NCBI GenBank assembly: GCA_030765585.1
Contig: JAVCCJ010000121.1
Location: 71,233-111,550 of the forward strand
DNA length: 40,318 nt
Direction: 5' to 3'
From: Candidatus Zapsychrus exili
GTDB lineage: Bacteria > Omnitrophota > Gorgyraeia > Zapsychrales > Zapsychraceae
Shown: positions 6,001 to 15,000 of the stretch, one piece after another
Layout: each line of letters opens with the position of its first letter
Position numbering within the stretch: position 1 is the stretch's first letter
Made by a program: the position numbers

Positions 6001-9000
6001 ATTAATGAATATCTTAAGAATATGTATATTTATAATCTTGTTAATACGTCAGCGGATAAGCTTGCGCATGTAACGATGGTACATAACTACTTCTTCTATA
6101 AATCATTACAATGGAAAGACGGAGAAACACAAGGTAAAAATATTGATAGAAATAATTTTGGTCAACATTTAGTTGAAAAACATTATGATCTATGGTCAAT
6201 ATTATTATTGATAACAACAACAGCTTCTAAGTTTATAACAAAGCATAGCACTATTCATCAAAATGATGTTGAGGCATATTTTAAAACTCCAGGCTTTATA
6301 AGATTCTATGAAAATGGTGGAAGAAAAGCAATTAATGAGTATCTTGTTGATGCTGCTGTAGATATATTCGAAGCTTTTGATGGTGATAATTACAAGAAGT
6401 CAACAGCAGAGGCATTAAGACAAAATGCATATGATTATATAAGAAGTGGTTTCATGTTCTTAAAAAGCCAGCTAAAGGAAATGAAAAAGCAAAAAACAAG
6501 CAATAGAAAAAGCCTCTATAAACAAGATTTTGCCAAAAGCTTATCCAGACATTAAGACAACAAAATATGGATTCTTAGGTTGGGTTCGCATGATATCTCA
6601 ATTTAAATGGATTTTTGTAGTGCTTCATATGACTATTCTTCTTGCATCTTTTGGAGCTTCTCTAACACAACCAATACACACTGTTATTGCAAATAAAGAA
6701 TTGTTAGTAGCTGCGCTTAACAATTGGTATCCATACGCACTTGTTGCTTTAGGAGTTATAGCTTTTATTCAATTTGTTATTTGGTTAATAAATAAGAAAA
6801 CTAAGCAAAAAGATCTGTTAGAAAATCATTGGGGCGATATGGTTCTTCCTTCTGAAGGTAGAAACAAAGATCGCGTTGAAGGAACCGGCGCACGTAAAAC
6901 TAAATCAGCTTTCATAATGATGACAACATTAATTACTAAGCTTATTTTTAATGCATATATTTTCCAATGGATTGCTCCTGGTTTACAAGTTTTAGCAGAA
7001 AGCAATTGGCTTGTATCTTGGGGTGGATGGGCATTAGTTGCTGTCCCTGCATTATTTATGCTTATTGTTATGTTGCTAGATATTTTTGCTTACTTCTATA
7101 TAGTAGAAGGATTTTTAGGTTATGTTCTTGCAAAGTGGGAAGGAGTTAATCGTATTAAATCATGGAATAGATCAGCTGCGGGAACTGCTTTACGGAATAT
7201 ATCTATTATGACAGTTATAGGATTAGTAATTTTTATTCAGCCTCTTGATTTAAGCTTTGGTCAATGGATTATACAAAATCCTGTATACAACATTGCTGGA
7301 TTTGTCGTTGGTGGAGCTGTATTGTTAACAGTTGCCAATATTATTCTTAAGAGTTTTGGTATTTCTCAAATTGGTGGAGATACAGTATCAGAGATGTTTG
7401 AGAAAGCAGGAAAGAAATTCGAAGAAAATATACTTCCGCCATCTTATGTTAACAGAGCAGGGGTAAGACAAATATTAACTGGTGAACAAAGAAAAGTTGC
7501 TTGGGCAAAGGCATGGAACATGATTGTAAGGCAATATTTATTAGATGATTTAATCTCTATTGAAGAAGCCAAAATGATGATATTTGTTTTAGGTATAAGC
7601 GGAAAAGACGTTTCAGTAGATAAAGATACATCAAAGTTATCAGAAGATGAATTAAATAGTTTAGCAGGTATTGGACCTGACAAATATGATTTCTTGAATG
7701 GAAAAATCAAAAGATCGCCAGACTTAAGAAACATTAAGCCACGTAATAAACAAGTTCAATCTCGTATTAAATTCTTCTTATCTACTCTATTTATGGATAT
7801 AGACCAAACTCCTGTTTGGGAGAGAATGTATATGCTGACCACAGCTATGCCTCAGTTTGAAGAAGTTATTATGTATCCATTTAGTCAATATACTGTAGGC
7901 GAATATGATGGGCTTAATTCAAAATATAAAACAGGACATACATTCTTAACATATTTTATGAATAAGCATTCTTTAGAATGGGATAATTTCAGAGCAAGAT
8001 TAACGAGAGAAATCGAGCAAGAAAAAGATTTTATTAAGAAAGCTAAGAAGAAAGCTGATTTGATATTATTAAATAATCTTAAGCCTGGAGAGAAATTAGG
8101 AAATTATAATCCTGCAACTCTTGATTATGAAATGAATAGTATGGATATTCAACAAGAAGTACGCCTATGGTTGTCTTTTAGATATCAACCTTTAGCAAGA
8201 AGTATCCGCGGTATGATGAATAATCGTCAAATGTATGTATTTCTTGCAAAGGTTAATTTCCCAACAACTGGAAGCTTTATAAACAATAAGAATGAAATTG
8301 AATCAAAGATAGCAAAATATAAAACACAATCTTATGAACAAAATATTGATGAAATTGTTGATGCAAAATATGAATTCTTACCAGGTCTTCAAATTTATGG
8401 AGAATCAAAAGAAGCAGTAGTAAAGAACACAGAAGAAGGTAAGAGCAAATATCGTTTTTATAAAAATTATCTTATTTTTAATGATGCAAATTATCTGCTT
8501 AAGAAATATAAACATTTTAAAGCAGCTTATCTAATGATAGGCAAAAATAAGAGTGGTGGCGTTGTTCGTTATGCAGAAGAAAAGCCAGAAAATAAAGAAG
8601 ATATTTTCTATGAGTTTAGTGCAGAAGAAGGTGGTGGATATATAGTAAGAGATAGTTATATGCCGCTTTCAAGTCATCCATTCTCACTCCAAGGTAAGCC
8701 TATGAATCAAAGTAATATCTTAAGATTTGCTCGTGGCGAGATTGTCCAGATGATGGATATGAATCAAGATATGTATTTAGAAGAAACATTTAAAGCCCCA
8801 AGTTTGATGGAAGAATTTAGAAAACAATCACGTTTAGCAATCGTTGGCTATCCTGAAGATATTTTTACAGGTGTTTCTTCTCCTGCTGGTGCAGTTCACG
8901 CTTATGGTGATCACACATTTTCGACACTTATTCAGCGAGTACTTGATTTTGCAGGCGTTCGTTATCATTATGGTCACCCTGATTTTGTTAGAGCAATGTC

Positions 9001-12000: not shown

Positions 12001-15000
12001 TAAAGTTAAAGAAGATGCCCCTAATTCGTATCCAGCTCCATTTAGGCCAACAGATAGTGCGCAAAAAAGATATAAGGGCACTAGTTTTAAACTTTTAGCC
12101 GAACGTACAGCTCAAAAGAATCTTAGCTTTAAATTGATTGAAGGCTCTTTGAGCGAAGAACAGGAGGCTATTATTAGACAGATGTTTAATAAAATTCTTT
12201 GGCTTTCTCGTGCTCCTCCTGAATATAAATTTCATATTGTTTTCACTTCTGATTTTAAAGAAACGCAAAATTCTTTAGCAGCGTATCATTATTCAGATAA
12301 AATTCTTTATATTCATTTATTTGTTGTTGATAAATTAGTATCTTTATCGCAACCTGATCGGATTAAATTCCTAGTATTTTTAAAGAAAGTTGTTTTAAAG
12401 AACCATGAAATACATCATATAAAGGGAGAAGATGAACAAAAAGCTCAAAAGCTTACAATAGATTATTTCTTAGAAGATCTTGATGCAGCAGCCAATACGT
12501 TTAATTTGGTAAAAGAAAGAGCCATTTTTGAGCTTCGTTTTAGTAGAAGTTTCTTGAAGTTGATTCTTGAGCATAAGTCCTTGTACAGGGTTTTATCAGT
12601 TCAAAGAGCAAGCTTTAAGAGCGTTATTGTGAATTTTAATGTACCTGAAGTTTTTAGTGTTACAAAAACAAAGCCAACAAAAGTTATCCTTTCTTTAAAT
12701 AGTGTATTCTTACCTGTATTCTTAACTATTTCTTCAGATTCTACTTTCCCACTTTTAGTTAAAATGGGCGACAATTTAGTGTTTGTTATTGTCGCCGCAG
12801 CTGCTCTCTTAACCATTGGATATCTTATAAGTTATTTTGTTTATAGAAAAAATAAATCTTCTTCAAACATCGAGAATTCAGATGATACTAAAGACTCTCA
12901 TTTTGTTGTTGGACCTTTATTATTAGCAGATTATTCAGATGGGGCTGTTGAAGCTTCTGAAATATCTACGAAACAAAGAACAGATCGCATTATTGAAAGA
13001 GTCCAAGAAGGGGCTGAATCTTTTAAAGCAACGGGTAATATTAGCGATGTTGCAACATTGACCTCCTTACATAAGCAATTCTACGAAACTCAAGATCAGA
13101 GAGTTATTGCGTCATTAATCAATAAAAAGGTGATTATTAATACTTACAAAGGAAGGCTAGTTGATAGAAAGTCTTATGCGCGGTTTGCAGAAGATGATCT
13201 TATACGTCTTGTTTTAGATAAGCAGTCTAAGGTAAAAGAACATTTATTTGTAAAAGACTTTTCTGGGTACAAGAAAGGCAATGGTGTTTCTTTTGATTGC
13301 ATAGTACGAAAATATGATGATAGAGAAAGAATATCTTATGTTGCTTCAGAAGATATGGGTAAATTTGTTGAAGATGAAAAAGTTGTAGAAATTCTAACAA
13401 AAAAGAAATATGGCGCTAATAGAGTTTTTGTAGAGAAAGGACTTCTTAAAAGACTATTGACCAGAAAAAGTTTAGTTTTAGGGATATCATCTGAGACAGG
13501 CAATATAGTTTACCTTGATTCAAGATATGTCAATAGTAACCCATATCGTATTTTCAGACAAAATTGGCATATAAATAATATTTTAAAATATTTTGAGAAT
13601 GACAAAAGTGATCATTATAAACAACGGTTAAAAGATGCGTTTACTGTAGCGAGAACATTTTATGAAAAAGGTAGTAATACAGGTATTAAAAAGAAGAAGA
13701 GCAAAATTGTAGTAAAGCCTTTATTCAAGAATATGGACGAGGTCATTGAGTTTCTTTATGTAATAATCAATACTTTTGGAACTCAATATTCTGCAGATTT
13801 CTTTATTTCAGGTATTTTGTTAGGTCTTTCACAGGATTATTTAGGCGCTTTCTCTAAGGATAATATATTGAATACTATAAGAGCATCTCAGAGCGCATTA
13901 GCGCAGAACTTTGATACGGATGTTATGAAAAGTGATAATCGTTATGTAGATAAATATATGAAAATGATAATAAAGCAGTTTGATGAGAATTTAAATGCGT
14001 TACAGTTAACGGTCTTATATAAGTATTACGAATTTATTAATAACGAGAATGAAGACTTTGATTTATATAATGATGAGATAATTCTTATTTGGGTAAATAT
14101 AGCTGAAGCGATTAATTGGAAGACAATCGTTAAAGCTATAAAAGATTTTGTGGGTACAACAGATAATGAGGATATTATTAAAGTTAAATCAGAATATAAT
14201 AAAGCTATTGGTATGGCCGTAAAAGAGTTAAAGCAATTAATGATTAATATAAAAAATGAGCTTCAGGCAAGAATTAATGAAAAAGGAATAAAGGCAGAGG
14301 TAAAGATAGATGAAAAGGATTATCTTGGTATGGCTCGTGAAATTTACTTTTCAGATTCGCGCAAGGGAAGTGATAAGAAATATGAACATGTTTGGGATTT
14401 AGACGATTTAGCTCGCATGAGAATTGTTACTGATTCTGACGCTGATAATCTTCATCTGGAATATGATGCTTTGGCTATTGTTCTAGATTTTATGAAAAGC
14501 AAAGGCATTAAGTTTATAGGCAATGAAGATGCTCTTATTTATAAGAGAAAATATGGTTTTGAATCAAATGATACAATTTACCAATTAAATAAGCTATTAA
14601 GATTGGAAGTTCAGATTATGTCAAAAGATTCAGAAAATGAAGCAGATCATGGAAAGATAGGACGTGTTTCTTATGAATTAGGAGTTAGAGGGCAAAAGAC
14701 AGAAGATCCTGTATTCTTACCAAATATTAGTAAAGATGAAAGCTCAGAAAATCTTCTTAAGAACTTAAAAGAGTATGTAAAAGCGCACGATATTATAAAC
14801 AATATATATGTTTAATTTAAGATTGGAGATGAAGGGGTTAATATTGTAACTTTGCCTGAAGGGTCTATTGTCGCTGATTTATTGGCACATTTTAGAGTTA
14901 ACTATTTTGGCAATAATGTAGAAATGAAAAGTCTAGAATCGTATAACAAACTTGGCTTAAGATCTGTTTTAAAAAATGGTCAATTAGTTTATATAAAGAA

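Follow-up and report, generated by a model that had tools for sequence, protein, structure and literature searches.

The genome of Candidatus Zapsychrus exili contains a module of glycosyltransferase family GT48 that belongs to a hitherto undescribed bacterial branch, which recurs as a cassette in giant membrane proteins of Omnitrophota. In the window, the stretch of 40,318 nucleotides that was analysed, the presence of a module of the Fks1/callose-synthase type at positions 6530-14815 is confirmed, in agreement with the first-pass annotation of the encoding reading frame g00298. We consider it probable, at about 60%, that this branch consists of UDP-glucose-dependent beta-1,3-glucan synthases, which would secrete their product through a fused beta-sheet conduit. 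To our knowledge GT48 has been a eukaryote-only family; the literature consulted covers fungal, plant, algal and protist members only, and we found no published description of the bacterial cassette.

Sequence, fold and layout of the module

The features of the region are located in the window as follows.

715..1917, plus strand: amphipathic beta-rich region, residues 1600-2000 of the preceding ORF; a weak lead to a possible outer-membrane-type barrel (conservation, moments)
3535..5484, plus strand: antiparallel beta-meander with interspersed helices, predicted extracytoplasmic; candidate polymer conduit (profile, AlphaFold)
5518..5625, plus strand: one transmembrane helix with basic residues after it, joining the beta-domain to the cytosolic domain (model helix 407-442)
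6001..6312, plus strand: FKS1_dom1-like cytosolic helical domain, in the preceding ORF (custom bacterial profile)
6484..6496, plus strand: frameshift that separates the preceding ORF from g00298, at an A5-GC-A6 run (overlapping frames; relatives)
6530..14815, plus strand: g00298, 2,761 residues
6572..7354, plus strand: N-terminal membrane block, about six helices equivalent to Fks1 TM1-6 (hydropathy; model helices 15-275)
7739..9340, plus strand: GT48 catalytic domain with GKxxNQ, DxNQD, HYGHPD, NED and KGRE motifs (PF02364, residues 404-937)
9287..10159, plus strand: C-terminal membrane block, about six hydrophobic segments, with a TGR gating-loop motif at residues 1019-1021; shared with relatives
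10277..14815, plus strand: variable giant-protein cargo outside the conserved cassette (repeat module 1305-1447, seven more transmembrane segments, RAPP/HExxH stretch)

The membership of g00298 in GT48 is supported by its sequence, its motifs and its fold. Residues 404-937 match PF02364 with an E-value of 2.1e-60 and 205 bits, compared to a gathering score of 37.2, no GT2 family of Pfam was matched, and chains of Fks1 and Gsc2 were the sole matches in a phmmer search of the PDB (E 3e-31 to 6e-31). A bacterial GT48 profile recognizes Fks1 with an E-value of 6e-113 versus 3e-4 for BcsA. The GT2 signatures QxxRW and TED are absent from the g00298 protein (P0001), which contains DKFG and NED at those places. 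In an AlphaFold model of the synthase part (pLDDT 81, pTM 0.83), the GT-A domain sits between two transmembrane blocks, and the model is nearer to Fks1 than to GT2 synthases: the top 13 Foldseek matches are all Fks1 or Fks2 (E 5e-28, TM 0.54), and a comparison with Fks1 by VIA yields a Z-score of 29 and an rmsd of 4.1 Å for 781 aligned residues, followed by cellulose synthases at Z 14.

The claim that most catalytic residues of Fks1 are kept was examined on positions with mutational tests (PMC10499315), which were numbered from the phmmer alignment by subtracting 19 from the Gsc2 number. Identity was found at 12 of 15 positions, with E851, K1082, D1102, N1104, E1155 and H1195 corresponding to E445, K723, D743, N745, E776 and H816, N1220/E1221/D1222 to N837/E838/D839, K1246/R1248 to K863/R865 and K1261 to K878, and the claim thus holds. 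The remaining three comprise a conservative replacement of E1173 by D794 and the exchange of K1172 for G793 and of D1080 for Q721. Substitution to leucine at D1080 and at K1172 disrupts yeast Fks1 (PMC10499315). Nevertheless, an acidic residue at the former and the lysine at the latter position are not family-wide features, since the amoebozoan-type protein P0116 contains leucine at D1080 and none of 30 bacterial rows contains lysine at K1172. At the D1080 position these rows carry Q in 11, E in 9 and other residues in 10 cases. In contrast to this variability, K723, D743, N745, E776, H816, E838, D839, K863 and R865 are invariant in all 30 rows at 19-50% identity. The GT48 motif set of g00298 is complete (E851, K1082, DxNQD, E1155, H1195, ED, KxR, K1261 and the TGR loop), including the NQD, ED and TGR motifs that are required for the activity of the plant and yeast enzymes, and its subclade retains all motifs common to fungal, plant and protist beta-1,3-glucan synthases.

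The N-terminal membrane block contains about six helices, in line with the initial assignment, with model residue 7 aligned to Fks1 439. The part of g00298 that is common to relatives ends at residue ~1125-1245 and aligns to Fks1 up to ~1514-1527. From the 13 hydrophobic segments that follow the catalytic domain, six (928-1209) are located within this common part, and the other seven (1377-2101) have no counterpart in 40 relative loci searched. With its end near residue 1200, the module comprises just about six of the 'at least 12' later helices noted initially. Within the cargo, only the repeat at residues 1305-1447 has counterparts in relatives, at 2 of 40 loci, and no Pfam, NCBIfam or PDB match was found.

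The description of the module as full applies to the membrane blocks and the catalytic domain, whereas its FKS1_dom1-like front resides in the preceding ORF; in relatives this domain shares the frame of the synthase. A profile built solely from bacterial sequences matches the N-terminal domain of eukaryotic GT48 proteins (P0099, E 4e-8; P0116, 4e-7; P0180, 8e-7; P0092, 1e-5). Pfam PF14288 (FKS1_dom1) itself matched 0 of 33 members, and a fold search with a 740-residue model did not recover this part. The helix at 5518..5625 is the only transmembrane segment in the 3,545 residues of the preceding ORF, and 31 of 32 relatives have it at the equivalent place. It is preceded by at least 1,438 residues free of transmembrane segments in 26 of 31 relatives, the remaining five being cut by an edge.

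The beta-meander in front of this helix was modelled with about 26 strands in residues 2-395 (AlphaFold of window 4300-6519, pLDDT 85), and its profile matches 32 relative frames. At 42 of 53 genome places it is followed by a synthase match at a distance of at most 5 kb, and it precedes a synthase at 16 of the 27 places that were left out of profile building. The other 11 places include five with a weak synthase match at the right distance, four at a contig end and two without a synthase downstream. The domain has no Pfam, PDB or wide-fold assignment (best Z 7.7, DUF3836), the window region 2500-5530 gave no usable Atlas match, and a search for longer homologues, which is weak evidence, found none. 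Further upstream, the beta-rich region at 715..1917 is conserved in eight long-form relatives and contains the highest beta/helix hydrophobic-moment ratio of the preceding ORF (1.53 for residues 1801-2000). In the Atlas it resembles barrels (0.88-0.91, low recognition), OMP_b-brl matched one of ten members (E 0.0012), and no PDB profile match of use was obtained. A fusion of a TolC-like domain to the preceding ORF is not supported (hhalign probability 0.1%, no profile matches). Stand-alone synthase forms of 3.0-3.1 kaa, with an extracytoplasmic region of 1,570 residues in one such form, are encoded downstream of a TolC-family gene of ~1,300 residues.

State of the present copy

Comparison with relatives indicates that g00298 constitutes one part of a giant gene broken by frameshifts, with the front of its module stranded in the preceding ORF, since relatives run in a single frame through both junctions between the first three giant ORFs. 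These ORFs, of 9,925, 3,545 and 2,761 residues, are collinear with the single frames of relatives, and the view of four consecutive giant genes has to be abandoned for the first three. Eleven relative records align in one frame to both sides of the junction at 6484-6496; the second frameshift is found upstream of the cassette part of the preceding ORF, around positions 67140-67270 of the contig (C24). With two frameshifts, one inside the cassette, the present copy is either inactive, working as two polypeptides or mis-assembled, and production of the polymer by this cell is thus only a possibility.

The copy may thus be dead, and a decaying pseudogene in an otherwise functional family, which overlaps with our preferred reading, falls just short of an even chance. 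This possibility is underlined by the two frameshifts proven by homology, by the annotated TTG start of g00298, which lacks a Shine-Dalgarno-like motif, and by a contig of a sequencing run that reads through the terminal stop codon region of g00298 without difference. Conversely, these are just two frameshifts in ~16,000 codons with every catalytic residue kept, and both breaks are located at or near A-runs, a common site of assembly errors. At the second break, bases are missing in A-runs in one contig of run X1; two salt-lake runs, one of which may stem from the source sample, were covered as assembled contigs, and none of these is listed across either frameshift. An ATG at residue 21 with a weak motif could restart translation. 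Shine-Dalgarno scoring did not discriminate. The single in-frame stop after g00298 cannot serve as evidence for a nonsense mutation, because the genome contains 65 such gene pairs and the first 800 residues of the next ORF have no relative in 44 family genomes.

Distribution and origin of the family

Of the 401 Omnitrophota genomes sampled, 37 contain PF02364 above the Pfam cut-off, compared to 0 of 14 control genomes, the sole coverage of other phyla. The bacterial GT48 profile, with GT2-like intermediates included, extends the family to 87 of the 401 genomes. The frames that host PF02364 modules reach 74,522 residues, instead of the ~7,900 reported initially, and the 30 best matches are free of stops. 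Within the reach of 14 controls, the proposed near-confinement to Omnitrophota fits these data: the three sequences with other labels (two Endomicrobia, one Parcubacteria) are nested among those of Omnitrophota. No match was found in plasmids or viral contigs, and no Rfam match within the window.

In a bolder reading, which we rate as less likely than not, GT48 would be bacterial in origin, with a continuum from GT2-like to Fks-like enzymes in Omnitrophota, from one branch of which the eukaryotic Fks and callose synthases would derive, and the giant protein would be a single-polypeptide machine whose predicted hollow beta-tubule would serve as beta-1,3-glucan conduit, for example in gluing an ultra-small predator to its host. 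In two GT2-rooted trees, the eukaryotes form one clade (SH-aLRT 99) nested inside bacterial sequences. In the reverse scenario, which appears somewhat unlikely, an ancient transfer brought a Cyanophora-type or amoebozoan-type GT48 from a eukaryote into the bacteria, where it diverged within fast-evolving giant proteins, and the GT2-like second tier reflects decay instead of ancestry. This scenario draws on the divergent GT48 proteins of Cyanophora paradoxa, with its paralogues, and of the Planoprotostelium fungivorum group, which constitute the nearest eukaryotic branch, share KARD/E and YVSEDIF-type motifs and are the best eukaryotic matches of the bacterial FKS1_dom1-like profile. A tree uniting them with the bacteria in one clade was not rejected (p-AU 0.076), nor was any alternative in the AU tests (p 0.08-0.30), and the domains of giant proteins are long-branched and could be drawn to the outgroup. 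However, these stand-alone proteins group with other eukaryotes rather than among the bacteria in both rooted trees, the bacterial diversity is wider, and E. coli BcsA is closer to the bacterial than to the eukaryotic profile (34.5 versus 10.1 bits). The second-tier Omnitrophota modules contain GT2-like DxD and xxKW motifs. In a midpoint-rooted FastTree, from which second tier and outgroups were left out, the bacteria form one clade.

Proposed function and comparison with known systems

The data demonstrate homology, fold, catalytic residues and the order of the cassette; donor, linkage, export and conduit are inferences. A long extracytoplasmic region ending in the beta-meander is followed by one transmembrane helix, the FKS1_dom1-like domain and the GT-A domain between its two membrane blocks. 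As in Fks1, a beta-1,3-glucan would be extended processively with the glucose of a sugar nucleotide that is probably UDP-glucose, the growing chain would be threaded through the synthase's own membrane channel, and the fused beta-sheet domain would guide it across the periplasm, in place of BcsB and BcsC for cellulose. For the family as a whole, a beta-1,3-glucan-like polymer would be the likeliest product. The laminaribiose phosphorylase homologue of this genome (6ggy, E 1e-261) offers weak support as a pointer to beta-1,3-glucan, since 166 of 401 genomes encode such an enzyme, 139 of these lacking PF02364, and it is absent from 10 of the 37 PF02364 genomes.

GT2 relatives make 1,4, 1,3 and mixed glucans and the linkage is unreadable from sequence. 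An active enzyme with a different product, such as a different linkage or another sugar, short glucans for the periplasm or for storage, or sugar attached to the giant protein itself, in combination with a beta-domain acting as adhesin or stalk, is unlikely. It would account for the variable D1080 position, the GT2-like motifs of the second tier, the weak likeness of the beta-domain to Rhs/teneurin shells in a fold search and the search for a canonical GalU, which found none above cut-off in the 96% complete genome, with two other large ORFs giving just weak matches to PF01704, yet it is at odds with the motifs retained in the subclade of g00298 and with channel-forming membrane blocks that match Fks1. 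Finally, an artefact by eukaryotic contamination or chance Pfam match is negligible even for a metagenome bin of 129 contigs, because the GC content (0.31-0.35) equals that of the rest of the genome, the single frame is intron-free and harbors bacterial cargo (OmpA, C39, SLT), and the module recurs in dozens of Omnitrophota genomes and in none of the controls.

Fks1 and Fks2 (PDB 8jzn, 7xe4, 9wy1, 9wzs) and plant callose synthases share with the bacterial form the order of FKS1_dom1-like domain, membrane block, GT-A domain and membrane block. In contrast to Fks1, the bacterial form is embedded in giant proteins and carries in front an extra transmembrane helix and an extracytoplasmic region of 1,400 to over 3,000 residues, its conserved part ends near Fks1 1520, leaving the last ~350 residues, the regulatory membrane region (~1520-1876), without demonstrated counterpart in g00298 as modelled to residue 1200, and D1080 and K1172 are not kept. 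Fks1 is regulated by Rho1 and a Fks1-Rho1 structure is listed among the fold-search matches; such regulation is unlikely in a bacterium. With BcsA and curdlan synthase of GT2, bacterial GT48 has a synthase-channel fold in common (Z 13-14) and, by analogy, may share processive synthesis and secretion, whereas QxxRW and TED are replaced by GT48 motifs, the export part is fused in cis and no PilZ domain was found in the module.

The Omnitrophota giant proteins termed 'Archaeovorins' (West-Roberts et al. 2023; bioRxiv 2026.06.07.730766) are likewise multi-enzyme membrane giants and share with this system C39, SLT, helicase-like and metabolic cargo and large antiparallel beta structure; the main texts of both works do not mention GT48, PF02364 or glucan synthase. 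Hollow antiparallel beta-helix tubules of ~1,500 residues with exterior helices were predicted in such proteins (West-Roberts et al.), and are not linked to a synthase in the section consulted. The beta-meander, of which 395 residues were modelled here, might correspond to this tubule as it is described there.

Echinocandins act on Fks1, and plant development depends centrally on callose synthase. The bacterial branch may inform on the source of the eukaryotic enzyme, and its diversity and GT2-like intermediates render the origin of GT48 testable. It also supplies mechanistic work with compact synthases that lack known eukaryotic regulators, and it would assign one conserved portion of the Omnitrophota giant proteins a concrete function, with a candidate role for their predicted beta-tubule.

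Identity of the GT48 module

The GT48 assignment made in the first-pass annotation for g00298, a frame of 2,761 residues (window 6530–14815, + strand), is borne out by a match to PF02364 at residues 404–937 (E 2.1e-60) and by a search of PDB sequences, which matched Fks1 and Gsc2 only. The claim that most catalytic residues of Fks1 are kept also stands, with 12 of the 15 residues named in PMC10499315 being identical and the remaining positions changed from E1173 to D794, from K1172 to G793 and from D1080 to Q721. Also present are three motifs that bioRxiv 2026.05.05.722910 reports from callose synthase, namely NQD, ED and TGR. 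In an AlphaFold model of residues 1–1200 (30-row alignment, pLDDT 81, pTM 0.83), the top 13 structural matches are all Fks1 or Fks2 (best E 4.5e-28), with Fks1 aligning over 781 residues at a Z-score of 29.1 and an rmsd of 4.1 Å, whereas cellulose synthases rank behind at Z 13–14. The GC content of the region equals that of the genome. The protein is a real bacterial form of GT48, set apart by its fused architecture and present here in a frameshifted copy.

This variant is apparently unpublished. Our literature search turned up no publication on GT48 in bacteria, Omnitrophota included, and PMC3797821 and PMC6260743, in the sections consulted, confine their treatment of the family to algae and protists. 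The main texts of two giant-protein preprints mention neither GT48 nor glucan synthase; PF02364 may be among the 552 Pfam families tabulated by the 2026 one.

A fragmented giant gene and its cassette

The window contains five long open reading frames, all on the + strand. Although g00298 had been taken for a complete, separate gene, blastx across its upstream junction and the alignment of its model to Fks1 identify it as a fragment of a larger frame. In the structural alignment, Fks1 439, at the start of the first transmembrane block, pairs with model residue 7, and the last ~900 residues of the preceding 3,545-residue frame are homologous to the region that, in relatives, stands ahead of the synthase without a change of frame. 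Eleven blastx records span both sides of this junction, where the frame changes at an A5-GC-A6 run (window 6484–6496). The next junction upstream is also a frameshift, through which a single frame of genome G340 reads. Since both upstream junctions are frameshifts crossed by frames of relatives, the first three of the supposed four consecutive giant genes together represent a single ancestral gene, at least 16,000 codons long. The 3' junction of g00298 consists of one TAA stop, which a contig of the salt-lake sequencing run X1 bridges without difference; 65 gene pairs in the genome have such a single-stop junction, and no relative was found for this one. At the internal frameshift the contigs of the two runs give an ambiguous picture: an X1 record (depth 3.4) misses single bases at two A-run places, and records of the second salt-lake run X2 (depth 4–7) miss none in A-runs; none of the X1 and X2 pieces listed spans it. 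The first piece of the gene, a frame of 9,925 residues at C24:37487–67264 (loci L003 and L004), contains C39 peptidase, OmpA, helicase-like, M23 and SLT domains; a frameshift carries its C-terminus over into the frame that follows.

An AlphaFold model of window 4300–6519 (+ strand; 33 rows, pLDDT 85, pTM 0.58) defines the front of the cassette:

residues 2–395: antiparallel beta-meander with a few helices
residues 407–442: one long hydrophobic helix
residues 457–739: helical domain

A bacteria-only profile of the helical domain matches the N-terminal domain of eukaryotic GT48 proteins (best E 4e-8), where Pfam places FKS1_dom1 in the protein record P0014; PF14288 itself does not match the bacterial version. 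One transmembrane segment is found 173–308 residues before the end of this domain in 31 of the 32 relatives that contain it, preceded in 26 by a stretch of at least 1,438 residues free of such segments, the other five being cut by an edge. The beta region presumably resides outside the cytosol, judging from the basic residues that follow the helix and from the cytosolic location that the domain has in Fks1. West-Roberts et al. predicted hollow antiparallel beta-helix tubules of ~1,500 residues that show likeness to Rhs and lack a known role; the beta-meander resembles them by description only, the shared Rhs likeness being weak in our model. A barrel-like stretch in the preceding frame (window 715–1917) is a weak lead; a search of this frame for TolC homology found none.

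Similarity of g00298 to relatives stops at residues ~1125–1245, beyond which a 140-residue repeat alone was matched, in two of 40 loci. The following features, all on the + strand, were observed in and around this end:

10442–10870, and residues 2401–2521 of the preceding frame: ~140-residue repeat with an RGGP/RAGP motif, flanking the cassette on both sides and present in several copies in relatives L056, L068 and L074
12209–12420: second stretch with RAPP followed by HExxH (HEIHH at 1959)
~14200–14815: C-terminus of g00298, matching nothing in Pfam, NCBIfam or PDB, with motifs that by eye resemble those of a degenerate RelA/SpoT-type nucleotidyltransferase
14852–38500: 7,882-residue frame with HAD hydrolase, phosphoribosyltransferase, PRPP-synthetase N-terminal, FAD-linked oxidase and two CrcB (fluoride channel) domains
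38632–40161: 509-residue frame that has a hydrophobic segment at its N-terminus; its coiled-coil-like match falls below cut-off, and no family was found for it

The repeat and the RAPP/HExxH stretch could be processing or linker modules.

Distribution among Omnitrophota

PF02364 was found in 43 of 401 sampled Omnitrophota genomes (37 above cut-off) and in none of 14 controls. Its open frames reach 74,522 residues, far exceeding the ~7,900 previously given as the upper size of host proteins. With a bacterial GT48 profile (E ≤1e-10) the count rises to 87 of 401 genomes (85 of 341 of high quality), nearly all in giant frames. Twenty excised loci of a second tier show GT2-like motifs; in several of them the GT48-specific first half of the domain is matched as well. 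Such intermediate modules (L081–L100) occupy giant frames of ~50 more Omnitrophota genomes, and genome G129 carries one module of each tier. Named members outside the phylum comprise two proteins labelled Endomicrobia and one labelled Parcubacteria.

Four stand-alone forms of 3,046–3,139 residues each follow a ~1,300-residue gene; both of these genes that were scanned belong to PF02321 (TolC family). One stand-alone form (L064:5590–14811), adjoining a triple-length TolC-family gene upstream, shows a weak GH76-like N-terminal match (E 1.5e-4) and a weak GT2 match in its core.

The beta-domain profile matches 53 places in 50 genomes; at 42 of these places a synthase match follows within 5 kb downstream (16 of 27 among places outside profile building). 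Of the other 11, four reach a contig end, two have no synthase match and five show a weak one 1,200–1,600 residues further on (E 2e-6 to 0.08).

Origin and proposed function

In a FastTree phylogeny (190 of 207 domain matches, 451 columns, most rows labelled by clade), the 90 bacterial-type rows fall into a single clade, whose closest neighbours are Cyanophora and Planoprotostelium-type proteins. A quick IQ-TREE analysis that took in the second tier as well as six outgroups from GT2 (92 of 110 rows, 248 columns; 16 rows thinned, two outgroups with long inserts left out) places the eukaryotes as one clade (SH-aLRT 99) nested among bacteria, which was recovered again with 50 rows. AU tests on these 50 rows rejected no alternative, be it all bacteria as one clade (p 0.114), bacteria with the Cyanophora group (p 0.076) or the 16 canonical bacteria as one clade (p 0.30). 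BcsA scores 34.5 bits with the bacterial profile versus 10.1 with the eukaryotic one, but the bacterial profile is also the more diverse of the two. On balance, the direction of transfer leans towards a bacterial origin.

A laminaribiose phosphorylase homologue is present in the genome; the enzyme occurs in 27 of 37 PF02364 genomes versus 166 of 401 overall, counts in which kin are not independent, and in 139 genomes without PF02364. No canonical GalU scores above its cut-off in the genome. Weak matches to PF01704 (UDPGP family), which is absent from the 14 control genomes, are found in two other large frames (C119:8443–9012 and C83:7495–8268).

Collectively, our analysis shows a GT48 synthase-channel whose catalytic motifs are intact under strong conservation and which is embedded in a fixed cassette. 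Its donor is probably a nucleotide-glucose and the glucan linkage presumably beta-1,3; the cassette would secrete the polymer, for which the beta-domain may serve as conduit.
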